Shown piece by piece: positions 3,016 to 49,378 of a stretch of 64,000 nucleotides of DNA. Within the stretch, counting starts at the first letter, position 1. Every line of letters begins with the position of its first letter. Made by a program: the position numbers and the translations under genes. The DNA is from an uncultured Chloroflexia bacterium (GTDB lineage Bacteria; Chloroflexota; Limnocylindria; Limnocylindrales; CSP1-4), in the NCBI GenBank assembly GCA_963837215.1, contig CAWIML010000009.1:295058-359057 (forward strand). The letters are read 5' to 3'. Under the pieces are notes generated by a model. That model worked only from the letters and a program-made list of their open reading frames with translations. It ran no database searches and was not told where the DNA came from.

Positions 3016-3233
3016 CGAGTGGACCCCAGGCTGCGAGAGCGATAAGTGCATGGGTCGTGGTTCGGTCTCGCCACTGGCTCGACGCGGGGCTCGTTGGGCG
3101 ACCGTGTGTAGCCCCCGCGTGTCAGCGCCTCCCTCGACGTTGGCGGAGTATGCGCGCCGTGGCCCATGCGGCGTCATGCCATAAGGCAGAAGGCGGTGCC
3201 TAGGGCACCGGCCGCGCCGAGGGCGCGGGGCTG

Positions 3234-4175
3234 CTACGGCTCCGTGATGGCGGCCGCATAGCGCTCTGGCGTCACGTTGCGGCCGGTGACCAGGACGACC
3301 AGCTTCCGAACGGCCGGCACCTTGCCGGCCAGCACCGCGGCCACGCCGGCGGCACCGGCACCCTCGGCGATCAGCCCGTGATGGATCATCAGCCAGCGCA
3401 TGGCTGCTCGGATCTCGGCCTCGGTCGCGCACACGAACCGGGCATCGCCCAGGAGCGACGGCGTCACAGAGCCTGGTTCGATGTTGCCGGCCAGCCCGTC
3501 TGCGAGCGTGTCGCCGTAGATGATGGGCACGGTCTTGCCGGCCGCCACGGCCGTCGAGACGGCCAACGACGCGCAGGCCTCGACCCCGACCAGCTCCACG
3601 TCACGGCGTCGTCGCGCCCAGAGTGCGACACCTGCCAGCAGGCCGCCACCGCCGACCGGCACCACGATCGTCAACGGGCCCGAGGCCTGTGTCTCGAGCT
3701 CGCGGCCGACCGTGCTCGTACCGGCGATGACCATGGTGTCGTTGTACGGCGAGACGTAGGTCGATCCGGGCCCGACCAGTGTCGGAGCGTAGGCCTCGGC
3801 GGCATCTGCGGTGCCGTGCAGGATGAGCTCGATCGGCTGTGCGCGGAGTTTGGCGATCTTGGCCGGCGATGCCTGCTCGGAGACGACGACCGTCGCCTGG
3901 AGCCCGAAGAGGGAGGCCGCCCAGGCAACGGCGAGGCCATGGTTGCCGGCGCTGGCCGCGATGACGTGGTGGCCGGTCGGTAGACGCGACAGCGACGACA
4001 GCGCGCCGCGGACCTTGAACGACCCGGTCGGCTGCAACGTCTCCAGCTTCAACCAGGCGTCAGGTGCCAGCGGGCTGGCGACCAACGGCGTCGGCGCCAG
4101 GCGCGCCGATACCGTCGACCAGGCCGCGTCGAGGTCAGCTTGGGTCGGTACTGTGACGCGGCGGATGGTCGTCAT
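3234..4175 (-). CDS. PLP-dependent threonine/serine dehydratase (tryptophan-synthase-beta fold).
   Basis: GSFKVRGA PLP-lysine motif, a glycine-rich VPVGGGGL loop and a length of 313 aa. It is the last gene of the kinase / TolB-like / dehydratase operon. Confidence 0.85.
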   Translation of the reverse strand: MTTIRRVTVPTQADLDAAWSTVSARLAPTPLVASPLAPDAWLKLETLQPTGSFKVRGALSSLSRLPTGHHVIAASAGNHGLAVAWAASLFGLQATVVVSEQASPAKIAKLRAQPIELILHGTADAAEAYAPTLVGPGSTYVSPYNDTMVIAGTSTVGRELETQASGPLTIVVPVGGGGLLAGVALWARRRRDVELVGVEACASLAVSTAVAAGKTVPIIYGDTLADGLAGNIEPGSVTPSLLGDARFVCATEAEIRAAMRWLMIHHGLIAEGAGAAGVAAVLAGKVPAVRKLVVLVTGRNVTPERYAAAITEP

Positions 4176-6733: not shown

Positions 6734-7592
6734 ATGTCTTTCGACCCGAACGCACGGCTCGACCCGGACCAGCTCCAGGACCGCCGCGGTCGCGTCGGTG
6801 GCCGCGGCATCGCGGTCGGTGGTGGTGGCGTTGGCCTCGTCCTGGTCATCGCCTATCTCCTGCTCGGTGGCGACCCATCGCAGCTCGTCCTCGACGGGCG
6901 GCGCTGGCGCCGTATCCGGCCCGGATTCGACGACCCTCCAGGCCGAGTGCGAGACGGGCACCGATGCCAACACACGGGCTGATTGCCGGATCGTCGGCTA
7001 TGTCAACAGCATCCAGGCCTATTGGTCGGATGCCTTCGCCGCTTCAGGTGAGCGCTACACAGAGTCCGACACGATCCTCTTCACCGACCAGACGTCGACC
7101 GGCTGCGGGCTCGCGTCATCGGCGGTCGGTCCCTTCTATTGCCCGAACGACGCCAGCATCTATCTCGACCTCGGCTTCTTCGATGCGCTCCAGCAGCGCT
7201 TCGGGGCGCGCGGTGGCGACTTCGCCGAGGCCTACGTGGTGGCGCACGAGTACGGCCATCACGTCCAGGACCTCCTGGGCGTCCTGGCCACGGCGCGCGA
7301 CTCCGGAGCCGGGGGCGCGTCCGTGCGGATCGAGCTGATGGCCGACTGCCTGTCCGGGGTCTGGGCCAGCAATGCGACCGAGACCGGGTTCCTGGTGCCT
7401 TTGACGCAGGCGGATGTCGCCGAAGCGCTCGACGCTGCGGCCGCGGTCGGCGACGACCGCATCCAGGCGCGCACCGAGGGTCAGGTCAACCCCGAGAGCT
7501 GGACCCACGGGTCGTCCGAGGAGCGACAGGCGTGGTTCACGACTGGCTTCGACGCTGGGAACGCCGACGCCTGCGACACGTTCAGCGAGTAG
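6734..7592 (+). CDS. YpfJ-family neutral zinc metallopeptidase (HExxH); one frame change at ~6893.
   Basis: The N-terminus [19 protein letters not shown]...GGGG...LLLGGDP (ORF 6734..6982) matches the YpfJ N-terminus. The remainder (ORF 6687..7592) carries [14 protein letters not shown] and IGDDRIQ. The frame change falls in a G-run (gacgggcgg). Confidence 0.8.
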
Positions 7593-7617
7593 CCGGTCCG
7601 TCGACGCCGACGATGAA

Positions 7618-7653
7618 ACACCCGGCGTGGCTGGTGGCCACGCCGGGTGTTCG
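7618..7653. terminator. GC-rich hairpin between convergent genes (candidate bidirectional terminator).
   Basis: acacccggcgtgg / ccacgccgggtgt 13-bp inverted repeat immediately after the YpfJ stop. No strong U-tract follows. Confidence 0.4.
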
Positions 7654-7710
7654 ATGCGATCGACCGTCGGTCGGCTCGCCGACCGCGATCGGAGTGGGAG
7701 TGGCAGGGGC

Positions 7711-8184
7711 TTAGGGCTTGCGCTCGAAGGTCGGGTCCCTATCCTCGGTCCGGACCGTGACCCGGTCCTCGTCAGCACTCTCTTCGGTCTTGTCCCCAGC
7801 TCCGGCACCCGCGCCAGCACCGACGGCACCACCGACGACGGCGCCCGGAGGCCCCGCCACCAGTCCGCCGATGGCAGCACCGGCCACGGCTCCGCCCCCT
7901 GCGCCCAGGCCAGCTCCGGCTTCATCGTCGCCCTCGGTCGCTTCGCCGGCGACTGCGCCGACCACCGCGCCGGTGACGCCGCCGACGGCCGCGCCAACCG
8001 GCCCGCCGACGGCCATGCCGACCCCGGCACCTGCGAGGGCGCCGGCGCCAGCTCCGATAGCCTCGGCGCCGACCTCGTCGGTCGGCTTCTTGGTCACGAC
8101 CTCGGTCTCCTCGGCGGCGACCCGATCAGGGTGCCGAGTGCTTACCGTCTGTTCGACGGTCTCTCCCGCTTCGTTGCGACCCAT
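7711..8184 (-). CDS. Glycine-zipper (GxxxG-rich) small protein.
   Basis: Repeated GAGAGALAGAGVG / VGGAVGAGAGAG zippers with an acidic N-terminus. A purine-rich RBS lies upstream of the ATG at 8184. Confidence 0.55.
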   Translation of the reverse strand: MGRNEAGETVEQTVSTRHPDRVAAEETEVVTKKPTDEVGAEAIGAGAGALAGAGVGMAVGGPVGAAVGGVTGAVVGAVAGEATEGDDEAGAGLGAGGGAVAGAAIGGLVAGPPGAVVGGAVGAGAGAGAGDKTEESADEDRVTVRTEDRDPTFERKP

Positions 8185-23263: not shown

Positions 23264-23292
23264 GTTGCGGTCGAGGCAGGACTGCGATAGCA
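23264..23292 (+). promoter_or_regulatory. Candidate sigma70-type promoter (TTGCGG, 17 nt, TAGCAT) driving the SAM riboswitch leader.
   Basis: Hexamers read directly from the sequence; the riboswitch P1 stem starts ~15 nt downstream. Confidence 0.35.
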
Positions 23293-23308
23293 TGAAGGCA
23301 ACCGAATA

Positions 23309-23416
23309 GCTCTTATCAAGAGTGGCGGAGGGACCGGCCCGTTGAAGCCACGACAACCTGCCAAGAGGACTTGGTAAGGTGCCAAATCCGGGCAGGTCCG
23401 CCTGCGAGATAAGGGA
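23309..23416 (+). promoter_or_regulatory. SAM-I (S-box) riboswitch aptamer.
   Basis: CUCUUAUCAAGAG-UGGCGGAGGGACCGGCCCGUUGAAGCC...CAACC...GGUGCCAAAUCC..GCAGG...GAGAUAAGGG matches the S-box consensus (P1 CUCUUAUCAAGAG/GAGAUAAG, kink-turn GGAGGGA, GGUGCUAAUUCC-like J3/4). Confidence 0.85.
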
Positions 23417-23427
23417 AACCCCCTGAG

Positions 23428-23462
23428 GCCCTTCCTCCGCAGGAAGGGTCTTCTCATTCCCG
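23428..23462 (+). terminator. Riboswitch expression-platform hairpin (transcription attenuator, OFF state).
   Basis: ccttcct-ccgc-aggaagg hairpin followed by gucuucucauucc (U-rich), ~45 nt before the ATG. Confidence 0.5.
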
Positions 23463-23506
23463 CCGGTCCTGCCGCGTTCCAGCCCCACCGCGCGAAGGAC
23501 CGACCG

Positions 23507-24862
23507 ATGACGACCGACCTGCTGGCCACCCCGACGATCCCATCGCCGCGGTCTGCCATGCCCGACGGCGCGTCGACCGAGACCCAGGGTGAGGGTGGCT
23601 CGGGGCCGGAGCGGATCCTCGGCATGCGCTGTCGGAACTGCGGCCGACCGGAGGCGCTCGGCGCGAACTACGTCTGTGCCGGCTGCTTCGGTCCCCTCGA
23701 GATCGCCTACGACCTCGAGGTCGCGGCACGGACGCTGGATCATGCCGCCCTCGCCTCCCGCCCGGCCGGCATCTGGCGCTACCTGGAGCTTCTGCCGGTG
23801 ACGGCGCCTCCGGTGCGGGGCCTCCAGGTCGGCTCGACCCCACTGGTGCCCGCCGAACGGCTGGGCGAAGTGATCGGCATCGAGCGTCTCTGGCTCAAGG
23901 ACGATACCCGGAATCCGACCCTCTCCTTCAAGGATCGTGCCGTTGCCGTGGCCGCCGCTCAGGCCTCGACCTTCGGCCTCGAAGCACTGGCCTGCGCCTC
24001 GACCGGCAACCTCGCCGGCGCCACGGCTGCCGCCGCGGCCGCCCTCGGCCTGCCGGCGTACGTCTTCATCCCCGCCGACCTGGAGCCGGCCAAAGTCGCC
24101 CACGCCCTGGCCTACGGCGCGACCGTGGTGCCCGTGGATGGCACCTACGACGACGTCAATCGGCTTTGCCTGGAGGTCGCCGACGAGCTCGGCTGGGGTT
24201 TCGTCAACGTCAACCTGCGGCCGTTCTACGCCGAAGGCAGCAAGACCCTCGCCTTCGAGGTCGCCGAGCAGCTCGGCTGGCGGCTGCCGGACGTGATCGT
24301 CTCTCCCATCGCCTCGGGGGCGCTCTTCACCAAGCTCGCCAAGGGGTTCGACGAGCTGGCCGCGGTCGGGCTCATCGAGCGAACCGCGGTGCGCTTCGTG
24401 GGTGGCCAGGCGGCCGGCTGCGCTCCGGTGGCGCATGCCTTCGAGTCCGGCAGCGATGTCATCGAGCCGGTGCGGGTTCCCGACACGATCGTCCGCTCAT
24501 TGGCCATCGGCAGCCCGGCTGACGGACGCTATGCGGTCGAGCTGGCACGGGCGAGCGGCGGCTCCGTCGAGGCCATCCCCGACAGCACGACCGCACAGGC
24601 GCTCCGTCGTGTGGCCGCCCTCGAAGGGCTCCATCCCGAGACCGCCGGCGGCGTGACCATCGCGGCCGCCGAGGCGGCCCGGGCACGAGGCGTCATCCGC
24701 GACGGCGACGAGGTCGTGGTGCTGCTCACCGGAAACGGCCTCAAGACACCGGACGCGGCGATGTTCGACATCGAGTCGCAACCGGCCGAGCGCGGCCGGC
24801 CCGGCCTGGCGCCGGTCCTTGCTGCACGCTTCTCGGCCTTCGAAGCCTGGTACCAGGCATGA
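23507..24862 (+). CDS. Threonine-synthase-like PLP enzyme with an N-terminal zinc ribbon; candidate MetM-type homocysteine synthase given the SAM riboswitch.
   Basis: C-x2-C-x13-C-x2-C (CRNCGRPEALGANYVCAGC). PLP-lysine motif SFKDRA. Thr-synthase / Trp-synthase-beta fold throughout; 451 aa. Confidence 0.85.
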   Translation: MTTDLLATPTIPSPRSAMPDGASTETQGEGGSGPERILGMRCRNCGRPEALGANYVCAGCFGPLEIAYDLEVAARTLDHAALASRPAGIWRYLELLPVTAPPVRGLQVGSTPLVPAERLGEVIGIERLWLKDDTRNPTLSFKDRAVAVAAAQASTFGLEALACASTGNLAGATAAAAAALGLPAYVFIPADLEPAKVAHALAYGATVVPVDGTYDDVNRLCLEVADELGWGFVNVNLRPFYAEGSKTLAFEVAEQLGWRLPDVIVSPIASGALFTKLAKGFDELAAVGLIERTAVRFVGGQAAGCAPVAHAFESGSDVIEPVRVPDTIVRSLAIGSPADGRYAVELARASGGSVEAIPDSTTAQALRRVAALEGLHPETAGGVTIAAAEAARARGVIRDGDEVVVLLTGNGLKTPDAAMFDIESQPAERGRPGLAPVLAARFSAFEAWYQA

Positions 24863-24867
24863 CCGGA

Positions 24868-24906
24868 CGGCGCCGCCGGATCGGCACACGCGGCGGCTTT
24901 TGCTCC
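24868..24906 (+). terminator. Intrinsic terminator after the thrC-like gene.
   Basis: gcgccgccg ... cggcggc stem followed by TTTTGCTCC. Confidence 0.45.
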
Positions 24907-25032: not shown

Positions 25033-25521
25033 ATGTCGTCCGTCCCTCGTCCCGGTCCGCGTCTCATCGACCCGCGCGGCCAGCGCTTCGGCGCCGGCTT
25101 CTCGGCGATCGTGTTGGCGCTCGCCGTCCTCCTCCAGTCGCCGCTGCTGGTATCGCTGGTCGCCGTCGCCCTTGGCGTCAGCTCGCTCTTCGGTCTGAGC
25201 ACCTTCGTCTTCGGGCGGCCGTGGCCGACCGTCCGGCGGCTGCTCCGGCTTGGCCCACCCGCCTATCAGGAGCCCGAATTCGGGCCTCGCTTCGCCCAGG
25301 CGCTCGGGTTCGTCTTCCTGGCTCTCGGGGTCGCGCTCGTCGCGGCCGGCGTCTCGCCCCTCGGGTGGCTGCCGATCGTGGCCGTGGTCGGGCTGCAGGC
25401 CACGCTGGCGCTGACGGGCTACTGCCTGGGCTGCAAGCTGTACGGCCTGAGTTGGTGGCTGCCGGCGCAGTTCGACCGATTCGTGTTGCGTCGGCAGGAG
25501 GAGGGCGAGCCGGCCGCCTGA
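25033..25521 (+). CDS. DUF4395-family integral membrane protein.
   Basis: Four TM segments (FSAIVLALAVLLQSPLLVSLVAVALGV; QALGFVFLALGVALVAAGV; LPIVAVVGLQATLALTGYCLGCKLYGL). Confidence 0.6.
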   Translation: MSSVPRPGPRLIDPRGQRFGAGFSAIVLALAVLLQSPLLVSLVAVALGVSSLFGLSTFVFGRPWPTVRRLLRLGPPAYQEPEFGPRFAQALGFVFLALGVALVAAGVSPLGWLPIVAVVGLQATLALTGYCLGCKLYGLSWWLPAQFDRFVLRRQEEGEPAA

Positions 25522-28915: not shown

Positions 28916-29083
28916 GCGTGGACTCCTTGTCGTCGTGCTGGTCGTATCGATCGCGTCCGTCGCCCGAAGGTCGGGCAGGCAGACGCCTGACTCAGCGCGA
29001 GGGTCGTCTCGTCACCTGACGGAGTCCTGAATCGAACGGATCTCCTGGTGCCCACGTCAGTGGACGCGGACGACCGAGGCCGG

Positions 29084-32000
29084 TCAGGCCTCGACGGGGG
29101 TCGACGTCGTCGAGCCGCTTCGGGCCCTGGCGGTCGACGGACGGGCGAGCTCCGCATCGAGGCGCCCGAGGTACGGCTTGGCGCCGACCGACTCGAAGAT
29201 GGCCCGAGCGTCCTCGCCGGCGGCGCGAGCCTCGGACACCTGCGGTCCGACCGCATGGATGAAGGTCAGCCCGCACATGGCCTGCTCGAAACCGGCGCCG
29301 ACCTCCGCAAATCCGCGAAGCGCTGCGACGTAGCCGTTGTTCGCTTCGGCGATGTCGCCTTCGAGTGCGCTCAGGCTGGCGTGCGCCTCGAGTCGGCTGG
29401 CCTTCGCGAAGAGCGTGACGTCGGGGTCGGCATCCAGCCGCTCCATCGCTGTCCGTAACGCCGACCGAGTCGCCCAGCCAGGTCGCCGAGCGCACCGCCA
29501 GCGCAAGGAGGTAGGACGCGAGCGTGGGTGACGCCGCGACGCTGCGAAGGTAGGCGTCGTACGCCTCCGCGTAGGCACCGAGGCTGAAGGCGAGGTCGCC
29601 GCGCAGCCAGTCCATGACCGCCTGATAGAACGGGTCGGCCAGATCGGCGAGCAATGACTCGAGCCGATGCAGCTGGTCGTCGATCGGTTCGCCCCGGGCG
29701 ATGCGGAAGAGCAGAGCGATGCTCAAGGCGCGATGCTCGTCGGCCGGTTCGGACGTCTCGTCGATGATCGCCTGCACCCGACCCAGCGCGAGGTCCCATT
29801 CGATGCCAGCCGAGTACCGGTAGTAGGCGGAGGAGCCGATCAGCCAGGTCGTCATCGGACGATTGCCGGACCGCTGGCCGAGCTCGATGCCGGCCTCGGC
29901 CTCGGCGAGGCCGCGCATCAGGTCATCGCCGGTGAGTGAACTCGCAAGGTTGTTGCGGGCGCGAAGCTCGGCGGCCAGGAAGCCGCCCTGTTGGGCCGTC
30001 CGGACGGCGGCTTCATGGATCGCCACGGCTTCGCGGCGCCGGCCGACATAGCTGAGCGCCGAGGCCTTGTTGTTGAAGGCTTCCGCGATGAGCTCCTCGA
30101 GGTCGAGCCGCTCGGCGATGGGGAGGGCCTGGTCGGCGACTTCGATCGCACGCGCCGGCTGGTCGTTGCGGAAGAGGGCCCGCGAAAGGTTGGTCAGGAT
30201 CGTGGCTCGGACGTCCTCATGGCCGCCAGCGGGCAGAGCCTTCAGGCCGGCCTCGAGTACGGGCACTGCGTCGCCGACTCGGCCGGCATCGATGAGCGTC
30301 TGCCCGAGTTGCGCGCTCGCGCGTCCTGCACCCGCGGCGTCTCCAGATCCGTCGTACCGCTCGAGCGCCTGCCGCGCGAACGCCTCCGACCGCTCGTAGT
30401 GCCCGGCGAAGTCCGCCGAGCGCGCGCTCTGGAGCAGCAACTCCGCCTGCTCCATCGGGTCCGTGGTGACCTGCAGCGCTTGCTGGGCGAAGGCGACAGC
30501 CTGGTCATGGGCACCAAGGCCTTCAGAGCGTTCGGCGGCGCCACGAAGGGCGAGCCGCGCCTGGGCGGCGACCGTGTCGGCCTCTTCGCCCGGCGTCGAG
30601 GCCTCGAAGGCGGCCAGGTAGTGGCCCGCCTGCACGCCCGCCAGCTCGTCCTCGCCGATCGACTCGATGAAACGTGCCGCGGCGATGTGGCGTGCGCGGC
30701 GGTCGCGGCGACCGAGCGTGCCGTAGGCGACCTCGCGGATGAGCGACTGGACGAACCCGTACTGGCCACGCTCCGGCGATCGGGGGTCGGATTCGACCTC
30801 GAGCAACTCCCGACGGACAAGGGCGCGCAGTCGCGGCTCGAGCTCCTCAGGGCCGGCGCCGTTGACGGCTGTCAGACCGGCCAGCGTGAAGACCTGCCCG
30901 AGCACCGACGCGTCCTGCAGGATGGTGCGATCGACGGGCTCGAGCGCGTCGAGGCGGGAGGCGATCAGCGACCGCAGCGTCTCGGGAATGGCCAGGGTCC
31001 CCAGGTCGCCGACCGGCCGGTAGCGGTCGTCGACACGCTCCAGGCGTCCGTCTGAGACGAGGGCGCGGACCGTCTCGACGGCGTACAGGGGCATGCCGTC
31101 AGCCCGCGCCAGGATCGCCTTGACGGCGCTCTCCGGGAGGCCGGGAACAAAACCCGCCAGGAGCTCGCGCATCGCCTGCGTCGGAGAGCGGCTCGAGGGC
31201 CAGCGACGTGAAGTGGCGCGTGCCCGATCCCCAGTCCGGCCGCCTGTCGAAGAGCTCGGGCCGGGCAAGGGTGACCACCAGGATCGGCACGCCCTTGGAC
31301 CATTCGAGCAGCTTGTCGATGAAGTCGAGCAGGCCGCTGTCGGCCCACTGGAGGTCCTCGAAGAGGAGGATGGTCGGCCCCCGCTCGGCGATGCGCTCGA
31401 AGAAGATGCGCCAGGCGGCGAACAGCATGTCCCGACCGCCTGGCGGGGGCGGTTCGAGGCCCAGGAGGGTCAGCAGCGCAGGCTCGACCCAGCGCTGGTC
31501 GTCGGCCCCCGGAACGTACTCGGCCACGGTGGCGGCGATGCGCTGGCGGGTCGTGGCCTCGTCGTCGGTCTCCGCCAGGCCCGCCCGCCGGCGGACCATC
31601 TCGCCCAGCGCCCAGAAGGTGATGCCCTCGCCGTATGCGGGTGAGCGCCCGCGGTGCCAGTAGACGTTCTCGAGGATGCCGTCGATGTACTTCTCGAGCT
31701 CCCAGGCCAGCCGGCTCTTGCCGATGCCGCCCGGCCCACTGATCGAGACGAGCCTGGCTCTGCGCTCGCGACCGACGGCGGCGAGGGCGTCCTTGAGCAG
31801 ACGGAACTCCTCGTCACGGCCGACGAACGGCGGTTCTGGCATGTCCGATCGCCCGTGGCCGCCGCGCTGGGCGACGACCCGTAACGCTCGCCATGCCTGG
31901 ACCGGGCTGGCCTTGCCCTTGAGGAGCTGGTCGCCGGCCTCTTCGAAGGCGATGGCCGACGAAGCAGCCCGCTGGGTCGCCTCGCCGACCAGGACGGTCC

Positions 32001-32685
32001 CGACCGGGGCCATCGATTGCAGGCGGGCTGCGGTGTTGACGAGGTCGCCTGCGACCATGCCCTCGCTCGTCGCGCCGAGTGTCACCGCAGCCTCGCCGGT
32101 CAGCACGCCGGCCCGCGCCTGGATGCCGGGCCCGAGCGCCTGGACCGCATCGACAAGATCGAGTGCGGCGCGGACGGCCCGCTCGGCGTCATCCTCCCGG
32201 GCCACGGGCGCGCCCCAGACGGCCATGACCGCGTCGCCGATGAACTTCTCGACGGTACCGCCGTATCGCCCGATGACGTCGCGCCCCAGATCGAAGTAGG
32301 CCGAGAGTGTCTCGCGGACCTCCTCCGCGTCGCGACCCTCGGCGAACGGTGTGAAGCCCACGAGGTCGGCGAAGAGGACGCTGACCAAACGCCGCTCCGC
32401 GACGGCAGGGCTCAGGCCCGCAGGTGCGCCTCTCGAAACACCCGGCGGAGCCGCACCGGCGCCGGGACCCGATGACCCGGTCAGCGGCGTGGCGCATTCG
32501 CTGCAGAACTTGGCGGTCGCGCCGTTGACCGTCCCGCACGCTGGACAGGCGACCGCGAGTCGTGTCGCGCACTCGGAACAGAACTTCGCCCCGACCGTGT
32601 TCTCCGTGCCGCAGTTCGAGCAGATCACCGATGACCTCGCAGCGTCCCCCAGACAACGGGGACGTGGATCGCGAGCGTACCCGAC
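29084..32685 (-). CDS. Giant signalling protein, paralogue 1 (~1200 aa): double zinc ribbon, class-III adenylyl/guanylyl cyclase domain, STAND/AAA ATPase (P-loop), TPR array. No LuxR HTH is visible. Two frame changes (~31180, ~29465).
   Basis: CSNCGTEN...CSEC...CPACG...CSEC ribbons. Cyclase motifs LVSVLFADLVGFT and GDAVMAVWGAP. P-loop ISGPGGIGKSRLA, Walker B ILLFEDLQWAD, then TPR-like helical repeats to the C-terminus. The pieces lie in ORFs 31099..33273, 28992..31268 and 29084..29578. Confidence 0.8.
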
Positions 32686-32761
32686 GTCGCCATGCGATGC
32701 GAGTGGTTCAGGCTCGCCCGAGGTGCACGGGCTGGCGCCAGCCCGTACCGGCACGATCGGC

Positions 32762-33685
32762 TCAGCCGACGAGCGACGTCGCCAGCCCCTTCCGTGCCAG
32801 GCGCTCCTCGAACCGCTGAGCGGCGACCTCGAGCGCGTCGAGGTGCTCGGCGAGACGCCGTCGTGCATCCTCGGCCGCGGCATCGAGACCTTCGAGCTCG
32901 AAGATCCGCCAGTGCCGGAGGATGGGCATGAGCACTTCGTCGCGGTGGACCCGGAGGTTGTAGATGCCGGCGGTCGCCATCTGCGCCGCCTTGCGCATGA
33001 AGCCCGGGATGCCGGCGCCCGGCATCTGGAACCGAAGGACCTCGTCGACGATGGCTCGCACCGTAGCCGACGGCTGCAGCTTGATGGCGGCCGAGAGCAC
33101 ATCGCGGTAGAAGACCATATGCAGGTTCTCGTCGGCCGCGATGCGGACCATGATCCTGTCCGCCACGGGGTCATTCGAGTAGCGGCCCGTGTTGCGGTGC
33201 GAGATCCGCGTCGCCAGCTCCTGGAACGCCACGTAGGCCAGCCCGTGAAGCGTGTCCGGCGCGCCGAGGTCATAGCCCTGTTGGAGCTGCGTCATGCGGC
33301 CACGCTCGAGCATCACGGGGTCGATGTTGCGGGTCACCGTCAGGTAATCGCGGAGGACGATGGCATGGCGACCCTCCTCTGCCGTCCAGCGCCCGACCCA
33401 GGTGATCCAGGCGCCGTCGCCGCGCCCGAACATGCCGTGGATCAGACGGTGGTAGCTGGGCAGGTTGTCCTCGGTCAGCAGGTTGACCTCGAAGGCAGTC
33501 TGGGCGACGCCGGTCAGGCGCGCCTGATCGGGCGTCCAAGGCTCGGTATCGAAGTCGCGACCCATGCGGTAGGGGATGAAGTCGTGCGGGAACCACTCGA
33601 CGGCGACGCCGAGGTGGCGATCCAGCAGCCGTCCAGCTTCGGGCTCGAGCTCGATCAGCAGGGCGGCCTCGTCGTAGTCGGGCAT
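32762..33685 (-). CDS. Acyl-ACP desaturase (DesA-like soluble di-iron fatty-acid desaturase, ferritin-like).
   Basis: The 307-aa C-terminal part of ORF 32762..35197, starting at MPDYDEAALLIELEP. Di-iron motifs EENRH-like (TEDNLPSYHRL, TAEEGRHAIVL, AADENLHMVFY). Confidence 0.85.
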   Translation of the reverse strand: MPDYDEAALLIELEPEAGRLLDRHLGVAVEWFPHDFIPYRMGRDFDTEPWTPDQARLTGVAQTAFEVNLLTEDNLPSYHRLIHGMFGRGDGAWITWVGRWTAEEGRHAIVLRDYLTVTRNIDPVMLERGRMTQLQQGYDLGAPDTLHGLAYVAFQELATRISHRNTGRYSNDPVADRIMVRIAADENLHMVFYRDVLSAAIKLQPSATVRAIVDEVLRFQMPGAGIPGFMRKAAQMATAGIYNLRVHRDEVLMPILRHWRIFELEGLDAAAEDARRRLAEHLDALEVAAQRFEERLARKGLATSLVG

Positions 33686-33848
33686 AACAGCCTCATGGGA
33701 TGTCCGGATGACCACGTCGGCGTTCGACGAGCGGCCGGACCGACCAAATGTACGCCTGAACGGGCCCGAGCGCCTCTGAGCGTGTGCAAGCCTGCATCGA
33801 GCGACCCGATCGGCGACCGGCAGGTCAGGCTCGCGCCGAGTCGCCCGG

Positions 33849-36800
33849 TCAGGTGCGCTCGCCGGCCTCGGCGATCGGTGCTGTCGATCTGCGGGGCGAG
33901 GTCGATCTCGTCGGAGACCCGGCGACCGCCGCGTCCAGCCAGGCCAGGTACGGGGCGGCGTCGACGCGCTCGAAGATCGAGCGTGCCTCGGCGACGAGAG
34001 CGGCGCCGACCACCTTCGCGCCCAGGATCCGGACCGTGTCGAGGATGGTCCGCGCGACATTGAAGTCGTGGCCGAACGTCCGGTACGTTGCGAGCACGTC
34101 GTGGAGCGCTGCCATCGCCTCCTCGACGCGGTCCTCGAGGGCCGCCAGCCAACCGCGGGCCCGCAGCCGCTCGATCCGCTGGGTGGGCGAGTCGGCAGTC
34201 GGCAGCGCATCGAGTTCGTCGACCAGGCGCCGGAGCTCATCGACATCTCGCAGTCGGACGGCGCTCGCCGACGCGTCCGCCAGTCCCCACGGGGCGTGGC
34301 CACTGAACCCGGCCGCCGTGCGGCGTTGCTCCGCCAGAGCCGTTCGGTCGTCCCCGGCCAGGATGGCGCGGTCGGCGAGCAACACGTGCACCTGGTTCGC
34401 CACCTGCGGATCACCGAGCTGCCTGGCGGCCAGCTTGACGCGCTCGAGCGTCTCGTCGCATGGATCGCCCCTCGCCATCTGTATCGCCGCCATGGCCGTG
34501 CGAATACCCACCTCGTCGCCCAGGCCACGTGCGTCGGCGATGGCGTCTGCCCCTTGCGCCAGCGCGGCATCCCAGTCGTCGGCGCCTGCCCAGCTCGCGG
34601 TGATGACGAACTGCAGCTGCCAGTTAGCCATCTGGCGATTGCCGTAGCGGCGCGCGATCTCGAGCGTCTCTCGGAACATCGACGTGGCGCGTTGGGGCTC
34701 GCGGTCCCAGAGCGTCGCGGCAAGGTTTGCCCGAGCCCGGAGCTCGGACGCGACGAAGCCACCGCGGGCAGCGATCTCGACCGCGGCCTGCTGCAGGGCG
34801 AGCCCTTCCTGGATGCGCCCGAGGTCGGCGAGTGAGGAGCCCTTGTTATTGAAGGCGTCAGCGATGAGCTGGTCGAGGCCGAGTCGTTCCGCGATCGGCA
34901 GACCCTGGTCGGCGGCGGCGACGGACTTGATCGGGTCGTCCATGCGCATGTAGCCTCGAGACAAGATGATCGCCAGGCGCGCGCGGGCCTCGTCGGGCGC
35001 CTCGGCCGGCAGTTCTGCGAAGGCGGGCTCGAGGATCTCGACGGCCGCCTCCGTCCTCGCCCCGTTGAGGAGCACTTCGCCCAGCCGGGCGGTCGCCCGC
35101 GCAACGTCGACGGCGTCGCCACCCTCGCGGAAGGCTTCGATGGCGTCCCGCGCCATGGCCTCTGCGAGCGAGTGGTCGCCGGCGTCCGAGGCGGCACTCG
35201 CCGCCATCTCGAGGAGCTGCCCGCGCTCGGCTGGCAGGCTGACGACGGTGAGGGCCTGCGTCAAGTAGGTCACGCCTTGGTCATTGGCGCCCAGGTCGAT
35301 AGCGCGTTCGGCGGCCGCCCGGAGTGCGATGCGCGCCTGCGCGCCGACCGCCTCGGCTTCCTCACCGGCGCTCGAGGCCTCATGGGCGGCGAGGTAGTGG
35401 CCGGCCAGCGCGCCGGCCAGCTCGTCGTCACCGAGCGCCTCGAAGTAGCGCGCTGCGGCAAGGTGCCGGGCTCGCCGGTCAGGACGGGCGAGGGTGCCGT
35501 AAGCGACTTCGCGGATGAGCGACTGGACGAAGCGGTACTGTCCCCGCTCCGGCGAACGAGGATCCGCCTCGACCTCGAGCAGCTCCCGACGTACCAGGCC
35601 GCGAAGGTGCGGCTCCAGGTCGTCGACAGACAGGTCCGCCGCCGGCCCGGTCGCGACGGCCGTCAGCCCGGCCACGGTGAACGCCCGGCCGAGCACCGAC
35701 GCGTCCTGGAGGAGAGCCCGGTCGACGCGTCTCGAGCGCGTCGAGGCGCGAGGCGATGAGCGACCGGAGCGTCTCCGGGATGGCCAGGGTGCCCAGCTCG
35801 CCGACTGGCCGATACGCGTCACCGACGCGCTCCAGGCGCCCGTCGGCGACGAGCGAGCGGACGGTTTCCACGGCGTAGAGCGGGACGCCATCGGCCCTGG
35901 CGAGGATCGTCGCGACCGCTGGCTCCGGCAACTCGGGAACGAAGCCGGCAAGCAGCTCGCGCATGGCCTCGGCCGAGAGCGGATCGAGGGCCATCGAGGT
36001 CGCGTGGCGGGTGCCCGTCCCCCAGTCCGGTCGGCGGTCGAAGAGCTCCGGCCGTGCCAGGGTCACGACCAGGATGGGCACGCCCTTGGACCACTCGAGG
36101 AGCTGCTCGATGAAGTCGAGCAGGCCGCTGTCGGCCCACTGGAGGTCCTCGAAGAGGAGGATGGTCGGCCCGCGCTCCGCGATGCGCTCGAAGAAGATGC
36201 GCCAGGCGGCGAAGAGGACGTCCCGGCCACCGGGCGGCGGCGGCTCGAGGCCCAGGAGGGTCAACATCGCGGGTTCGATCCAACGCTGGTCCTCGGCGTC
36301 GGGTACGAACTCGGCCACGGTCGACGAGATGCGCAGACGCGTCGACGCTTCGTCGTCGCCCTCTGCCAGGCCGGCCCGTCGTCGGACCATCTCGCCCAGC
36401 GCCCAGAAGGTGATGCCCTCGCCGTAGGACGGCGACCGCCCGCGGTGCCAGTAGATGTCCGCTGACACGCCGTCGATGTACTTCTCGAGCTCCCAGGCGA
36501 GGCGGCTCTTGCCGATGCCGCCTGGACCCGAGATGGACACCAGCCGCGGCCGTCGATCCCGGCCGATGGCGCTCACGGCGTCGCGGAGGATGCGGAAATC
36601 GTCCTCCCGCCCGACGAATGGCGGCTCCGGCATGTCCGAGCGCCCATACCCGCCCCGCTGGGCTACCACGCGCAGCGCCCGCCAGGCCGGGACCGGGCTC
36701 GTCTTGCCCTTGAGAAGCTGATCGCCGGCGGGCTCGAAGGCGATGGCGGCGGCGGCCGCGCGCTGGGTCGCCTCGCCGACGAGGACGCTGCCCGGCGGCG

Positions 36801-37472
36801 CGATCGACTGGAGGCGGCTGGCCGTATTGACCAGATCACCGGCGACCATGCCCTGATTGGTGGCACCGAGGGTGACCGCGGCTTCGCCGGTCAGGACACC
36901 GGCCCGCGCCTGGATACCGGGGCCGAGCGACCGGACGGCGTCGACGAGCTCGAGGGCCGGCGCGGACAGCGCGTTCCGCGTCGTCCTCGCGCGCGACCGG
37001 TGTGCCCCAGACGGCCATGACGGCGTCGCCGATGAACTTCTCCACCGTGCCGCCGTAGCGGCCGATGACGTCAGAGGCCAACTCGAAGTAGCGCGACAGC
37101 GTCTCGCGTACGTCCTCCGCGTCGCGCTCCTGGGCGAACGTCGTGAAGCCGATCAGATCGGCAAAGAGGACACTGACCAGACGGCGCTCCGCCACTGGGG
37201 TGGCCGACCCGGTGGGCGGTGCAGCGCCTCGACCGATGGCGGCCACGGACGGTTCGCTGCCGGCTACGTCGGCGTCGATGGGCGTGCCGCATTCGCTGCA
37301 GTACTTCGCAGTCGGCGCGTTCGCGGTGCCACAGGACGGACACAGCAGCGCGCATCTGCACGCCGCACTCGGAGCAGAACTTGGCACCGAGTGCGTTCTC
37401 CGTCCCGCAGTTGGCGCAATTCACCGACGGCCCTCCAGCAGTTGCCCGGATCGGATCGCGAGCGTACCCGAC
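33849..37472 (-). CDS. Giant signalling protein, paralogue 2 (zinc ribbons, adenylyl cyclase, STAND ATPase, TPR); at least three frame changes (~37345, ~36958, ~35737).
   Basis: Same architecture and roughly 70-80% protein identity to paralogue 1 (LVSVLFADLIGFT, GDAVMAVWGTP, ISGPGGIGKSRLA, ILLFEDLQWADSGLLDFIEQLLEWSKGVPILVVTLARPELFDRRPDWG). The pieces lie in ORFs 37071..37643, 36836..37387, 35479..36849 and 33849..35951. Confidence 0.8.
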
Positions 37473-37497: not shown

Positions 37498-39021
37498 TCA
37501 TGCCTCGGCGTTGATCTCCCGGGTGCGCCGTGCCACGTACGCGTCGAGCGCTTCGCCCACGGCCGGGTCCATAGGTGGCGGCCGCGCCTCGGCCAGGAGC
37601 TGCTTCCAGATCCGATTGGCGCGCTGCGTCGCCGTCTGGGCACCGTCCTCCTGCCAGGTCTCGAAGTTGCGCCAGTCCGAGAGGAGCGGGCGGTAGAAGG
37701 CGGTCTCGTAGCGCGCCATCGTGTGGGCGGTCCCGAAGTGGTGCCCGCCTGGCCCGACCTCGGCCATCGCCTCGAGCCCGAGCGTGCCCTCGTCGACGAC
37801 CATCGGCTGCAGCACCTCGGCCATCATCTGCAGGATCTCGGCGTCGAGGATGAGCTTCTCGTAGGAGGCCGTCAGGCCGCCCTCCAACCAGCCGGCACCC
37901 TGATACAGGAGGTTGACGCCACCGAGGATGGCGCCCCAGACGGCCATCTCCGACTCGTAGGCTGCCTGGGCGTCGACGACGTTGGAGGCGGTCACGTTCG
38001 AGGAGCGCCAAGGGAGACCGTATCGGCGTGCCAGCTGTCCCGTTGCGAAGGCGGCCTTGACGTACTCGGGCGTGCCGAAGGCCGGGGCGCCGGAGCGCAT
38101 GTCCACGTTGGAGGTGAAGCCGCCATAGACGACCGGCGCACCCGGTCGGGCGAGCTGGGTCAGGGCGACCATGAAGAGCGCCTCGGCGTTCTGCTGGGCA
38201 AGGGCGCCGGCGAGGGTGGCCGGGGTCATGGCGCCCGCCAGCGTGAATGGCGTGGCGACCACAGCCTGGCCGTGGATGGCCATCTCGATGAGCCCGTCTG
38301 ACATCGGGCCGTCGAGGCGCAGCGGGGTATTGGAGTTGATGATCGTCATCAGGCTCGGCCGCTCGAGGAGCCCGTCGCGATCGACGCCCAAGGCGAGACA
38401 ACTCATCTCGATGGCGTCGTCGACCACGACGCGCCCGGAGCCCAGGCACTGCCACGACTTGTCGAGCTCGGCGATGAGGATGCGGTACATCTCGAGGTGC
38501 CGAGTGGACACCGGCAAGTCGGTCGGCTCGAGGGGACCGCCGCCCTCCTGGTGCACGATGTCAAGGGCGCCGATGAGCCGCACGTAGTCGCGGAAGTCGG
38601 CGGCGTTGCCGGCCCGACGCCCGCGGTCGAGGTCGGTCACGAAGGCCGGCCCCCCGACGGCCCCGAAGACGACGTCGGCACCGCCGAACGTCAAGGCGCG
38701 CGCCGGGTTGCGAGCGTGGAGCGTGAAGGTCGAAGGCGCGCGCGCGACCAGCGCCTCGACCTGCGCGCCCTCGAGTCGCACGCGCCGTACGGCCCGGTCC
38801 ACGCTGGCTCCCGTCGATGCCAGGAGGTCGAGGGCGCGGTCGCCCATGACCTCGAAGCCGATCTCCTCGAGGATCCGGAGGCTGGCCCGATGGATGGTCT
38901 CGACCTGTTCGGGATCGAGGATCTCCACCGGGCGAAATGGATTGACGAGTCGGCGCCATGGCGGTCGGGCGAGGCCCCCGGCCTCGCGCCGGCCGCGCCG
39001 GCGGGCGCCCTCAGCCGTCAC
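37498..39021 (-). CDS. MttB-superfamily methyltransferase (trimethylamine / glycine-betaine:corrinoid methyltransferase-like); non-pyrrolysine type.
   Basis: 507-aa TIM-barrel methyltransferase recognised along its full length (...GGGPLEPTDLPVSTRHLEMY..., ...FGTPEYVKAAFATGQLARRYGLPWRSSNV...). No in-frame amber codon. Confidence 0.85.
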   Translation of the reverse strand: MTAEGARRRGRREAGGLARPPWRRLVNPFRPVEILDPEQVETIHRASLRILEEIGFEVMGDRALDLLASTGASVDRAVRRVRLEGAQVEALVARAPSTFTLHARNPARALTFGGADVVFGAVGGPAFVTDLDRGRRAGNAADFRDYVRLIGALDIVHQEGGGPLEPTDLPVSTRHLEMYRILIAELDKSWQCLGSGRVVVDDAIEMSCLALGVDRDGLLERPSLMTIINSNTPLRLDGPMSDGLIEMAIHGQAVVATPFTLAGAMTPATLAGALAQQNAEALFMVALTQLARPGAPVVYGGFTSNVDMRSGAPAFGTPEYVKAAFATGQLARRYGLPWRSSNVTASNVVDAQAAYESEMAVWGAILGGVNLLYQGAGWLEGGLTASYEKLILDAEILQMMAEVLQPMVVDEGTLGLEAMAEVGPGGHHFGTAHTMARYETAFYRPLLSDWRNFETWQEDGAQTATQRANRIWKQLLAEARPPPMDPAVGEALDAYVARRTREINAEA

Positions 39022-40705
39022 GGTCGCGTGCCAGGTAGGCCTCAGCGATGCGGTCGGCCGTCACGCGCGCGTCATAGGTGCCGGTGATGGCCAGCAGGAA
39101 GGCGTCGCGGTCGAGCGCCTGCAGCTCGACGTCGGTCAACGCCGTGACGGTCGCCGTACGCGGCACCGCGCGCATCAGCGCGATCTCCCCGAAGGCGTCG
39201 CCGCGCTCCAACTGGCGCAGCTGGCGCCCGTCCTGGCTGACGGCCAGCCGACCCCGTTCGACGACATAGAAGCGGTCGCCGACATCCCCCTGCCTGATGA
39301 CATCGCTGCCGCCTGCGTGGAGGATCGGTACCAGCGCGCGGGCGGCCGCTTCCAACGCCGGCGCCGGCACCGGGGCGAAGAGCGGCAGGCTCCGAAGCAG
39401 TCGGATCTCGAGCGTCGGTACACGGATGCGCCCCTCGGCGCGGCCCAGTCGGAACCAGGCGACGACCGCCCCGATCGGCAGCACAGCCGCGATCACGGCA
39501 AAGGTCGCCGGGAGGCCGATCCGTTGGACGAGGATGGCGGGCAGGATGGAGCCGACGGCGAGACCGGCCATGGCGAAGCCCTCGACGAGCCCGAAGACGC
39601 CAGCCAGGACATCATCAGGCACGATGCGTTGGAGGAGGGTCCGGCCGGCGACGTCGACGAGAGCAAGGCTGACGCCGCAGACCACCATCAGGCCCGCCGC
39701 CGCAGTCGCCGACTGGGCGAGTGGGGCCGCCAGCAGACCGAGTCCGAAGACGACGGCACCCAGCGCGAGCCACGGCGAGAGTCGGCCTCGACCAACCAGG
39801 ACGAGGGTCAGCGCGCCGCCGACCACGCCGCCGAGCCCGACGGCAGCCGTCAGGTAGCCGGCCCCGGCGCCTCCGATCTCGAGGACCTCGATGGCCAGCA
39901 GCACGAGCAGGACGTCGATGGCACCGATCATGACGTAGCGGGCGCCGAGCATGATGACCAGCAGCCGCTGGTCGGCATCGCGGCTGACCTGTCGGATGCC
40001 CTCGAAGAAGGAAGGCTGAGGCGCCGGGCGCGATCCGACCCGCGGGACATCGGGCGTGGCCGGGTCGCTGGCCGTTCGTTCGGGAGCGACGTCGGCCGCG
40101 CGGTGCGGTCGGAGCCGAAACGCCAGGAGCGTGGACAGGCTCACGAGGACGGCGCACACGATGAAGACCTGGCCCGGCTGTCCCGCGACCAGCATCAGCC
40201 CGGCCAGGATGGGCCCGATGAGCACGCCGAGCCCGTCGATGATGGTCGAGACGGCGTTGCCGGCCGTGACCTCCTGGGCGGTGTCGGCATAGGCGGGCAC
40301 GAGTGCCGCCTGGAGCGGCCGGGCGATGGTCAGGCTGCAGGAGTAGGCGACGGCGATCAGATAGACGAGCGCCGCGGGCAAGCCGATCAGCATCGCCGCC
40401 CCGACGGCCAGCGTCGTCAGTGCCAGCGCACCGTAGCCGGCCACGAGCAGGCGATCCCGACGATATCGATCACCGAGGCTGTTGACGAGCGGCGCGAAGA
40501 AGGCGGCCGGCACCAGCTGGCCGAACGCCACCAACCCGACCGAGGCTGGACCGGTCGCGTCGTAGGCGTAGACCAGGAGCGCGACCCAGGTTCCGTATTC
40601 GAGGATCGAAAAGCCCAGATACGCGAGAGCCATCCGGCGGAGGTCGTGGTTGCGGAGCACCGCGACGAAGGCACGCAGGGACGCACGGAGGCGGCTGGCG
40701 GGCAT
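39011..40705 (-). CDS. MFS transporter fused to a C-terminal cyclic-nucleotide-binding (cNMP/CAP-type) domain.
   Basis: Twelve TM MFS body followed by LRSLPLFAPVP...GDRFYVVERGRLAV...GDAFGEIAL...RTATVTALTDVELQALDRDAF. Confidence 0.8.
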   Translation of the reverse strand: MPASRLRASLRAFVAVLRNHDLRRMALAYLGFSILEYGTWVALLVYAYDATGPASVGLVAFGQLVPAAFFAPLVNSLGDRYRRDRLLVAGYGALALTTLAVGAAMLIGLPAALVYLIAVAYSCSLTIARPLQAALVPAYADTAQEVTAGNAVSTIIDGLGVLIGPILAGLMLVAGQPGQVFIVCAVLVSLSTLLAFRLRPHRAADVAPERTASDPATPDVPRVGSRPAPQPSFFEGIRQVSRDADQRLLVIMLGARYVMIGAIDVLLVLLAIEVLEIGGAGAGYLTAAVGLGGVVGGALTLVLVGRGRLSPWLALGAVVFGLGLLAAPLAQSATAAAGLMVVCGVSLALVDVAGRTLLQRIVPDDVLAGVFGLVEGFAMAGLAVGSILPAILVQRIGLPATFAVIAAVLPIGAVVAWFRLGRAEGRIRVPTLEIRLLRSLPLFAPVPAPALEAAARALVPILHAGGSDVIRQGDVGDRFYVVERGRLAVSQDGRQLRQLERGDAFGEIALMRAVPRTATVTALTDVELQALDRDAFLLAITGTYDARVTADRIAEAYLARDRDG

Positions 40706-40764
40706 GCCGTAAGCATCGCGTATCCGGCCACGGCTGCACACCTCCTGGCGGTACCCTCTTCGGC

Positions 40765-47627: not shown

Positions 47628-48194
47628 TCAGCGTACGCCGACCAGCGCTGAACGGAACGGCGCCAGCGTCGCGTCACGGAGGACGAAGGTGATCTCGCGC
47701 AGCGTGGCGGTGGTGTGGAGCTCGACCTGCGTCGTGGCGACAGCGATGCGCGCGGCGTCGGCCAGCGGATAGCCGTAGATGCCGGCGCTGATGGCGGGCA
47801 GGGTCAGGGACCTCGCCCCGAGCTCGTCCGCCAGACGAACGCAACTCCGATAGGCAGAAGCCAGGAGCTCAGCCTCATGGCTCCGACCCCCACCCCAGAC
47901 GGGGCCCACGGCGTGGATGACCCACCGCGCAGGCAGGCGACCCGCAGTCGTGGCGACGGCGGTACCCGTCGGCGTTCCGTCGGGAAAGCGGTTGCGCAGC
48001 TCGGCCATGATGGCCGTCCCACCGGCCGCATGGATAGCGCCATCGACGCCGCCTCCGCCCATCAACGAGCTGTTGGCCGCGTTCCCGATCGCGTCGGCCG
48101 GGATGGCGGTGATGTCGCCGACCACGATGGCGAGCCGCGCGGTGCCGATAGCCAGGACGTCCGATGAGGTACCCAAGCCGTCATCTTGGACCAT
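47628..48194 (-). CDS. Macro-domain protein (ADP-ribose / O-acetyl-ADP-ribose binding and hydrolase, MacroD/YmdB-like).
   Basis: GDITAIPADAIGNAANSSLMGGGGVDGAIHAAGG...GRLPARWVIHAVGPVW...AISAGIYGYP. Confidence 0.85.
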   Translation of the reverse strand: MVQDDGLGTSSDVLAIGTARLAIVVGDITAIPADAIGNAANSSLMGGGGVDGAIHAAGGTAIMAELRNRFPDGTPTGTAVATTAGRLPARWVIHAVGPVWGGGRSHEAELLASAYRSCVRLADELGARSLTLPAISAGIYGYPLADAARIAVATTQVELHTTATLREITFVLRDATLAPFRSALVGVR

Positions 48195-49339: not shown

Positions 49340-49378
49340 CCGCTCGCCGAGCCGAGGCGGAGTGGTGCGCGTCGCACG

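Follow-up and report, generated by a model that had tools for sequence, protein, structure and literature searches.

Which reaction is catalysed by an enzyme that is annotated as a threonine synthase and lies behind an S-adenosylmethionine (SAM) riboswitch, and from where would such an enzyme draw its sulfur if its product were homocysteine? These questions are raised by a locus in a 64,000-nucleotide stretch of DNA from an uncultured Chloroflexia bacterium (contig CAWIML010000009.1 of assembly GCA_963837215.1; the whole stretch is called the window here), where a SAM-I riboswitch precedes a gene for a 451-residue pyridoxal 5'-phosphate (PLP) enzyme of the threonine synthase (ThrC) fold. According to papers that cite Hasebe et al. 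(2024; Appl Environ Microbiol 90:e01247-24), MetM of Streptomyces albulus converts O-phosphohomoserine to homocysteine with the thiocarboxylate of the carrier protein MetO, and a SAM riboswitch is described upstream of S. albulus metM (PMC12172450). The citing papers also give an identity of about 33% between MetM and Bacillus subtilis ThrC and call MetM 'often misannotated' as threonine synthase, and a 2026 revision of GapMind includes MetM/MetO as the thiocarboxylate route from O-phosphohomoserine to homocysteine. An earlier note, made from the letters of the window alone, had proposed a MetM-type homocysteine synthase here. Our analysis supports this proposal, and we consider it likely that the locus is a methionine-regulon unit in which a SAM-I riboswitch controls a MetM-type homocysteine synthase and from whose operon the carrier gene metO has been deleted; the chemistry is one that we infer.

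A SAM-I aptamer and a ThrC-fold enzyme of a separate clade

The two features that define the locus are as follows.

23310..23415 (+): SAM-I (S-box) aptamer with helices P1-P4 (full-length RF00162 match; RNAalifold)
23507..24862 (+): metM-type gene for a 451-residue ThrC-fold PLP enzyme, a putative O-phosphohomoserine-dependent homocysteine synthase (domain, clade and structure-model evidence)

The leader is a SAM-I aptamer. The earlier note had read one upstream of the ThrC-like gene and had named an Rfam covariance search as the way to check it; this search returned 79.1 bits against a gathering score of 44.4 (RF00162, E=6e-17, model positions 1-108), and the quoted motifs CUCUUAUCAAGAG, GGAGGGA, GGUGCCAAAUCC and the P1 3' strand GAGAUAAGGG are all present. 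Across 19 relatives with the same leader type, RNAalifold recovered P1-P4 together with the terminator stem described below, with compensatory changes in P1 (UA to CG in three sequences) and in P3.

The enzyme likewise has the architecture ascribed to it, a ThrC fold with an SFKDR lysine and an N-terminal C4 zinc ribbon. The product of the open reading frame (ORF) matches PF00291 (E=5.9e-68), its PLP (Schiff-base) lysine is K142 of SFKDR (nucleotides 23930-23932), and the zinc ribbon spans approximately residues 39-68 (nucleotides 23621-23710), with cysteines C42, C45, C57 and C60 that never vary among 29 close relatives and reach at least 93% conservation across 77 relatives. In an AlphaFold model (predicted local distance difference test score 81.6), residues 1-33 are disordered, residues 37-68 form confident beta strands, and the remainder superposes on solved threonine synthases (template modelling score, TM, 0.82; 35-37% identity), which are the closest structures found in the PDB. 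The start codon is backed by a conserved MTT(D/E)LL N-terminus. The closest database proteins come from organisms named Chloroflexota or Candidatus Limnocylindrales, and public annotations uniformly read 'threonine synthase'.

A scan of one genome per species yielded a relative set of 80 loci, cited below by our locus labels where needed; contigs with apparent frameshifts were left out of the rate and signature analyses. Identity to the window protein is 64-88% in Limnocylindria-like Chloroflexota and about 50-57% in Actinomycetota, Dormibacterota, Aquificaceae, Nitrospirota and others. Taken against solved enzymes, the window protein shares 45-57% identity with clade members of other phyla versus 36-37% with the ThrC proteins of Aquifex (2ZSJ) and Bacillus (6CGQ), which agree at 60.6% of positions between themselves; for one Aquificaceae member of the clade, identity is 50% to the window protein and 40% to Aquifex ThrC. 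In a 77-member alignment, about 125 positions are at least 93% conserved within the clade, and at 51 of these it differs from both ThrC structures. Some dozen of them lie in the zinc ribbon and other segments without a ThrC counterpart, leaving about 40 clade-specific substitutions inside the region shared with ThrC. The window protein carries every clade signature residue, and the replacements include the following.

ThrC STGN-TS: clade STGN-LA (L169, A170)
ThrC NPYR-xEGQ-KT: clade R238-PF-Y241-AEG-S245-KT
ThrC VGNAGN: clade IASGA
ThrC IGNPxSW: clade IGxPADG
ThrC EPA: clade ETAGG

The ThrC-type residues of STGN-T and NP(Y/F)R are thus absent, with L169/A170 and R238..Y241 in their place, a change that is at least 93% conserved in the 77-member clade. 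In Thermus ThrC, the substrate phosphate, which later assists hydration at C-beta, is presumably held by Thr in STGNT and Arg in NPxR; the loss of both residues would then fit a gamma-replacement enzyme. On these comparisons, the window protein belongs to a clade separate from canonical ThrC, with an active-site signature of its own, and the firm clustering within ThrC that, combined with a genome lacking any other thrC, the earlier note had named as an outcome that would speak against its proposal was not observed. Split ORFs caused by frameshifts occur in metM and its neighbours in L001 (ena:ERZ25039591:contig_160941), L084, L038-L040, L048 and L050; these are long-read contigs of metagenome-assembled genomes, and the frameshifts are probably assembly errors rather than pseudogenes.

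The genomic associations of the clade point in the same direction. Strong nhmmer matches place a SAM-I aptamer immediately before the gene in 43 of the 80 loci, and 13 more loci gave weaker matches; with Rfam confirming 8 of 12 further loci that were tested, SAM-I is present in at least 51 of the 80 and possibly in up to 64. Tested members from Aquificaceae, Nitrospirota and Thermodesulfobacteriota had no SAM-I aptamer upstream by Rfam. A MoaD/ThiS-like ORF, hereafter metO, is the next one downstream in about 60 of the 78 loci that could be tested, frequently with an overlap at the stop codon; GG forms the very C-terminus of its product in 46 of 60 cases and is followed by one extra residue in 7. 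The metO ORFs of L002 (11326..11685), L040 (~7261..7776) and L007 extend 20-29 residues beyond GG, into conserved terminator-like sequence, and these extended forms would need C-terminal processing. Two loci illustrate the complete arrangement: L002, 82% identical to the window protein, consists of a riboswitch, a metM-type gene, an overlapping ThiS gene and a DUF4395 gene, and the complete genome of Nonomuraea gerenzanensis contains an RF00162 match (68.7 bits), a zinc-ribbon ThrC-like gene and a gene for a 91-residue carrier ending in AGG, together with a separate canonical thrC elsewhere that is 56% identical to B. subtilis ThrC at the protein level.

We file the enzyme as MetM-type because this clade architecture matches the description of S. 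albulus metM/metO in the citing papers; clade identity, residue signature, the upstream SAM-I aptamer and the GG-ended carrier downstream in relatives all support the assignment. Under this reading, plentiful SAM would lead the riboswitch to shut off the MetM-type enzyme, a paralogue of threonine synthase, which would take O-phospho-L-homoserine, eliminate phosphate on PLP and form homocysteine by adding sulfur at C-gamma. The thiocarboxylated C-terminal glycine of MetO is the sulfur donor in the characterised system.

Deletion of metO and selection on metM

The 3' end of the locus contains three features.

24848..24853 (+): deletion junction after W448, beyond which the frame reads YQA* where LE(A/R)* stood (alignment to L002 and L040)
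24864..24905 (+): probable 3' terminator, stem GCCGCCGG...CGGCGGC followed by UUUUGCUCC (UUUUGCU tail) (fold and conservation, moderate support)
25033..25521 (+): DUF4395 membrane-protein gene (PF14340, E=4e-23)

When the window is aligned with L002, the final metM codons run straight into the sequence that follows metO in L002; about 280 bp, the whole of metO, are gone, and the protein terminates in FEAW-YQA* instead of FEAW-LD(R)*. The identical junction is found in five other contigs, L001 (99%), L083 (94%), L084, and the pair L085 and L086 (85-88%), the metO-less contigs originating from several different samples, and in a further 91% relative no ThiS gene adjoins metM. By comparison, metO is retained in L040 (88%) and L002 (82%). 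Because the junction is shared by contigs of different samples while L040 and L002 keep metO, the alignments indicate that the deletion is real and ancestral to a small clade. Pseudogene remnants of metO were sought in 24863-25032 and none was found, this interval holding just the former post-metO tail and the terminator. The earlier statement that no MetO-like gene is adjacent therefore stands for this locus, where it reflects a lineage-specific deletion, but does not extend to the family as a general property. About 15 of the 78 testable loci, in other lineages, also have no adjacent metO. At some loci without an adjacent metO, the neighbours resemble a Cys/Met-metabolism PLP enzyme and aspartate kinases, as judged on their N-terminal sequences alone (L006 7674..8819, minus strand; L055 8293..9531, plus strand; L060 9122..10552, plus strand).

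The hairpin that now follows metM is probably the terminator of the unit. Its fold energy does not differ significantly from that of shuffled sequences, given the high GC content here; the element is kept after metO in L002 and after metM in the clade that lacks metO, and L085 shows compensatory changes in it. The DUF4395 gene beyond it adjoins metM or metM-metO only in the window, L001, L002/L003, L011, L040 and L084. It was considered as a conserved partner and rejected, being next to metM in the closest sub-clade and in none of the other loci, and it is probably not a functional partner.

Loss of the carrier gene has left the enzyme gene under constraint. Within the metO-less clade, the ratio of nonsynonymous to synonymous substitution rates (dN/dS) of metM is 0.10-0.18 at a dS of 0.37-0.60, and among the approximately 125 conserved positions the window protein departs from the family consensus only at V66I, L113M and L123I. 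Adaptive change in MetM following the loss of metO was looked for and none was seen at conserved positions. The gene is maintained under purifying selection and gives no sign of retooling.

Possible sources of sulfur

With metO gone from the operon, the sulfur donor would be supplied from elsewhere. Because metM shows no adaptive change at conserved positions after the loss of metO, we consider a MetO-type carrier encoded in trans the most likely source of sulfur. One gene of the window deserves attention in this respect.

49379..49654 (+): MoaD/ThiS-like (MoaD/SAMP-like) carrier gene whose product ends in LPAVAGG-WGA (PF02597)

As noted earlier, this is the sole ThiS/MoaD-like gene in the window, and it is distant from metM (24.5 kb). 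Its product is 27% identical to the MetO of L002 and is related to the MetO family with a median identity of 33%, scoring 148.7 bits on a hidden Markov model (HMM) of BNR-linked ThiS proteins versus 50.3 bits on a MetO HMM. We considered it as a relocated metO and rejected this identification, as it belongs to a distinct family that in relatives is always paired with a BNR/sortilin-like gene. That pair, at 48164..49654 (+) in the window and also present in L087, L088 and L089, consists of a BNR/sortilin-like repeat gene (48164..49339 in the window) followed by the MoaD/ThiS-like gene, the two often overlapping; the BNR/sortilin-like partner has approximately 358-391 residues, and the ThiS partner ends in a conserved LPAVAGG with a variable tail of 0-25 residues. 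A role of the 49379..49654 protein as a substitute carrier is conceivable. A second candidate, the PALP gene 3234..4175, was examined as a CysM-type thiocarboxylate user and rejected, since it falls in the Ser/Thr dehydratase family.

The strongest alternative to a MetO-type carrier in trans is that the MetM-like enzyme of this lineage no longer uses such a carrier and takes sulfide directly or another ubiquitin-like carrier, such as the 49379..49654 protein, CysO or MoaD. We regard this as possible but the less probable course of events. The precise deletion of metO from a clade whose proteins have since drifted apart to 85-94% identity, metM staying intact, would be readily explained in this way, as would the loci of other lineages that likewise lack an adjacent metO, and the window does encode another GG-bearing MoaD/SAMP-like protein of a MetO-related family. 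Yet an enzyme that has not adapted at its conserved positions is what would be expected if the co-substrate had stayed the same and now came in trans. The BNR-ThiS pair is conserved as a unit of its own, without ties to genes for sulfur or methionine metabolism, and our view is limited to 64 kb, so that metO may sit elsewhere in the genome. We therefore put forward only tentatively the idea that MetM of this Limnocylindria sub-clade has long worked (dS approximately 0.4-0.6) without a dedicated MetO, on sulfide or on a recruited, unrelated carrier. If true, this would be a case in which protein-thiocarboxylate-dependent amino-acid synthesis has, in nature, become independent of its carrier or exchanged it for another.

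Expression platform of the riboswitch

Around and downstream of the aptamer, the leader contains the following elements.

23265..23293 (+): candidate sigma-70-like promoter, -35 box TTGCGG 23265-23270, 17-nucleotide spacer, -10 box TAGCAT 23288-23293 (alignment)
23404..23440 (+): candidate antiterminator, P1 3' strand GCGAGAUAAGGG (23404-23415) with the terminator 5' arm and loop CCCUUCCUCCGC (23429-23440)
23425..23461 (+): terminator-like hairpin, stem 23425-23436 with 23441-23452, loop CCGC, tail UUCUCAUUCC (folding, conservation)
23463..23470 (+): candidate anti-Shine-Dalgarno element CCGGUCCU, complementary to the Shine-Dalgarno region and to the aptamer P2 segment GGGACCGG (23330-23337)
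23494..23503 (+): Shine-Dalgarno (SD) region, GAAGGA 23494-23499, with AGGACCG 23496-23502 pairing with the anti-SD element (sequence, minimum-free-energy fold)

A simple consensus scan of 23100-25100 for promoters and terminators called nothing, and the candidate promoter boxes and the hairpin therefore rest on conservation and folding. In an alignment of nine relatives, the -35 box falls on a conserved TTGAC(G), and TA(G/C)CAT stands opposite the -10 box. The hairpin, which starts ten nucleotides past P1, has the core GGCCCUUCCU-CCGC-AGGAAGGGUC and a predicted energy of -19.3 kcal/mol over 23425..23452 (z=-3.23), with 0 of 200 shuffles equally stable; its stem and a UUCUCGUUU-type tail are kept in 19 relatives, with UA-to-UG changes only. 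Distant actinobacterial members (L053, L055, L069 and L076) have clear terminators with U6-7 tracts at the position of the window hairpin, and in some distant actinobacterial leaders the terminator 3' arm includes GGAGG, with the start codon immediately after. The SD sequence GAAGGA of the window lies 7 nucleotides upstream of the metM-type ORF, and the ATG lies about 45 nucleotides past the hairpin tail, in agreement with the spacing given earlier, and 91 nucleotides past the aptamer.

We propose that SAM would stabilise P1, P2 and the pseudoknot, and that formation of P1 would leave hairpin 23425-23452 free to terminate transcription; SAM would also release the anti-SD element CCGGUCCU to pair with AGGACCG, thereby hiding the ribosome-binding site. 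A set of observations tells against this scheme. The tail UUCUCAUUCC is U-rich for a genome of 70% GC yet makes a poor U-tract, and the simple terminator scan missed the site. Among the 19 relatives the terminator stem shows no double compensatory change, although a stem fixed in sequence would fit a strand obliged to pair with two partners. The antiterminator duplex is weak, at a predicted -12.5 kcal/mol versus -18.8 kcal/mol for the terminator, and the unconstrained minimum-free-energy (MFE) fold retains the hairpin with or without P1. The shuffle test of the anti-SD/SD duplex is also weak, with a mean z of -0.84. Across relatives, a 5-bp core, AAGGG/CCCUU, is all that is kept of the antiterminator, and pairing of the P1 3' strand with the terminator 5' arm is a plausible, albeit weak, antiterminator. 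The OFF-state terminator named in the earlier note is matched by a stable, conserved hairpin with a weak U-tract and a weak candidate antiterminator.

The anti-SD element provides a second layer of possible control. CCGGUC(C/U), with the core CGGUC, occurs 41-52 nucleotides past the aptamer in 38 of 44 Limnocylindria-type leaders, hairpin-less ones included. Its predicted duplex energies are -13.7 kcal/mol with the SD region and -14.4 kcal/mol with P2; the MFE fold pairs 23464-23470 with 23496-23502, and forcing the anti-SD/P2 pairing costs 3.4 kcal/mol over the MFE and frees the SD. We advance sequestration of the SD by this element as a hypothesis.

A mainly translational riboswitch, in which SAM frees CCGGUCC to cover the SD and hairpin 23425-23452 is structural or auxiliary rather than a SAM-dependent terminator, appears to us somewhat unlikely. 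It would account well for the many relatives (such as L004, L005, L008 and L009) that have no hairpin and keep CCGGUCC and its pairing with the SD region, for the double complementarity of CCGGUCCU to P2 and SD with an alternative fold so close to the MFE, and for the weakness of both the U-tract and the antiterminator. It accounts less well for a hairpin and U-rich tail that are strongly kept in 19 relatives despite the 70% GC content and for the textbook U6-7 terminators at the equivalent site in L053, L055, L069 and L076; moreover, the statistics of the SD-pairing duplex are not significant on average, and both mechanisms may coexist. SAM-dependent termination by the hairpin, possibly joined by SD sequestration, thus remains the reading that we prefer.

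Expression platforms vary among close relatives with the same aptamer and gene. In Limnocylindria leaders L004, L005, L008, L009, L018, L032 and L035, the terminator hairpin is missing and a pairing CCCGGUCCCGAGGC...GCCUCCCGGGAG over the ribosome-binding site is kept. In five Actinomycetota leaders (L053, L062, L069, L076 and L082), a textbook terminator, GGCGGAGG followed by U6, stands after the SAM-I aptamer, with the SD inside the terminator 3' arm and the start codon a few bases past the U-tract; such an element could gate transcription and translation together.

Threonine synthase or relic

Several results weigh against the assignment to MetM. The product scores 245.3 bits on TIGR00260 (thrC), above the cut-off of 167.1. 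A cyanobacterial member of the clade is described in a citing paper as having weak threonine synthase activity and deaminase activities rather than a clear MetM function. In Pfam scans, the rest of the 64-kb window contained no MoeZ/ThiF, JAMM/Mec, thrB, hom, metX/Y or second thrC. Finally, the link to the characterised S. albulus MetM is carried by locus architecture and by statements in citing papers: our closest proxy with the S. albulus locus layout is the Nonomuraea protein, 48-52% identical to the window protein, and a homology search started from it returned Nonomuraea or Streptosporangiaceae proteins for all of the best 120 matches, and the plasmid collection contained no Streptomyces MetM.

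That the gene encodes a genuine threonine synthase which happens to be SAM-repressed is nevertheless very improbable. The TIGR00260 score, the uniform public annotation and the reported weak activity of the cyanobacterial relative all favour it, but the Nonomuraea MetM-type protein also passes TIGR00260 (270 bits), which means that this model does not separate MetM-type enzymes from ThrC. On NF006050 the window protein falls just below the cut-off (291.5 versus 303). Its clade is separate from all solved ThrC proteins, L169 and Y241 replace the Thr and Arg that presumably bind the substrate phosphate, the clade is systematically tied to SAM riboswitches and a sulfur-carrier gene, and N. gerenzanensis, a genome with a like locus, has its separate canonical thrC. 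Cysteate synthase (TIGR03844) was also tried and rejected, with 46 bits against a cut-off of 325.

Weakest of all is the idea that the gene is a decaying relic, useless since its partner was lost, which loss of metO might suggest but which hardly deserves credence when contigs of several different samples show no damage to the ORF, riboswitch, SD or promoter-like elements, dN/dS is as low as 0.10-0.18, and the catalytic and clade-specific residues are all kept.

Other features of the window

Three further regions of the window attracted our attention. A c-di-GMP-II-GAG riboswitch (RF03169, 64.2 bits versus a gathering score of 40) at 3051..3141 (-) lies upstream of the minus-strand gene 924..2714, whose 596-residue product contains Big_9 and cadherin-like repeats and is probably a c-di-GMP-controlled adhesin. 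A cluster of large regulator-like genes with double zinc-ribbon, adenylate/guanylate cyclase, AAA_16 and TPR domains occupies 28992..36849 (-); within it, a match to the Rfam family ASdes, a mycobacterial small RNA, is found at 33309..33376 (+) (52.3 bits versus a gathering score of 40), just upstream of the minus-strand cyclase/AAA_16 gene 31099..33273, in the gap that separates it from a second large minus-strand TPR regulator gene; in DNA so rich in GC, the match may have arisen by chance or from coding sequence. At 37498..40741 (-), an MttB-family methyltransferase gene (PF06253, E=1.8e-190) adjoins a gene for a fusion of an MFS transporter with a cyclic-nucleotide-binding domain, and this pair is also found near metM in a 91% relative.

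Significance and comparison with known systems

The first description of the MetM/MetO route dates from as recently as 2024, and nearly all annotations still call its enzymes threonine synthase. The clade defined by riboswitch, metM and metO extends well past Streptomyces, to Chloroflexota, several actinobacterial classes, Aquificaceae and Nitrospirota; where members of the last two were tested, they had no riboswitch. This clade can be told from true ThrC by a short residue signature, which would help to assign methionine and threonine pathways correctly in Chloroflexota of soil and freshwater that have not been cultured. The locus in the window is most likely an ordinary member of the MetM family apart from one new element, the metO-less sub-clade to which it belongs, and the clean loss of metO with metM under selection amounts to an experiment of nature that asks if the enzyme depends strictly on a carrier of its own.

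Compared with S. albulus MetM/MetO, the window locus shares a ThrC-family PLP enzyme, an upstream SAM riboswitch and the annotation 'threonine synthase', and most of its relatives also share the gene for a GG-ended MoaD/ThiS-like carrier directly downstream; it differs in its host, a Limnocylindria-like member of Chloroflexota, in the deletion of metO from the operon, and in having no moeZ or mec within 64 kb. Canonical ThrC proteins (PDB 2ZSJ, 6CGQ, 2D1F and 1UIM) resemble the window protein in fold (TM 0.82), SFKDR lysine, STGN loop and the presumed substrate O-phosphohomoserine, whereas the window protein is only 36-37% identical to them, has an extra N-terminal C4 zinc ribbon, is presumably regulated by SAM and has relatives linked to a sulfur-carrier gene. 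The CysO/CysM/Mec/MoeZ system of Mycobacterium tuberculosis follows the same logic, in which a PLP enzyme of fold type II works on an O-phospho amino acid together with a ubiquitin-like carrier in thiocarboxylate form, and differs in that CysM acts on O-phosphoserine to form cysteine; the window contains no CysM. Like the SAM-I/S-box riboswitches (RF00162) of Bacillota and Actinomycetota, the leader combines a full-length P1-P4 aptamer with a candidate OFF-type hairpin platform and a probable methionine-biosynthesis gene, but it departs from them in the weak U-tract of its terminator and in the added, conserved CCGGUCC, which is complementary to aptamer P2 and a candidate for sequestering the ribosome-binding site. 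CCGGUCC and the weak U-tract together suggest dual or translational control, and they make this leader a candidate for combined transcriptional and translational SAM-I control in a high-GC organism.

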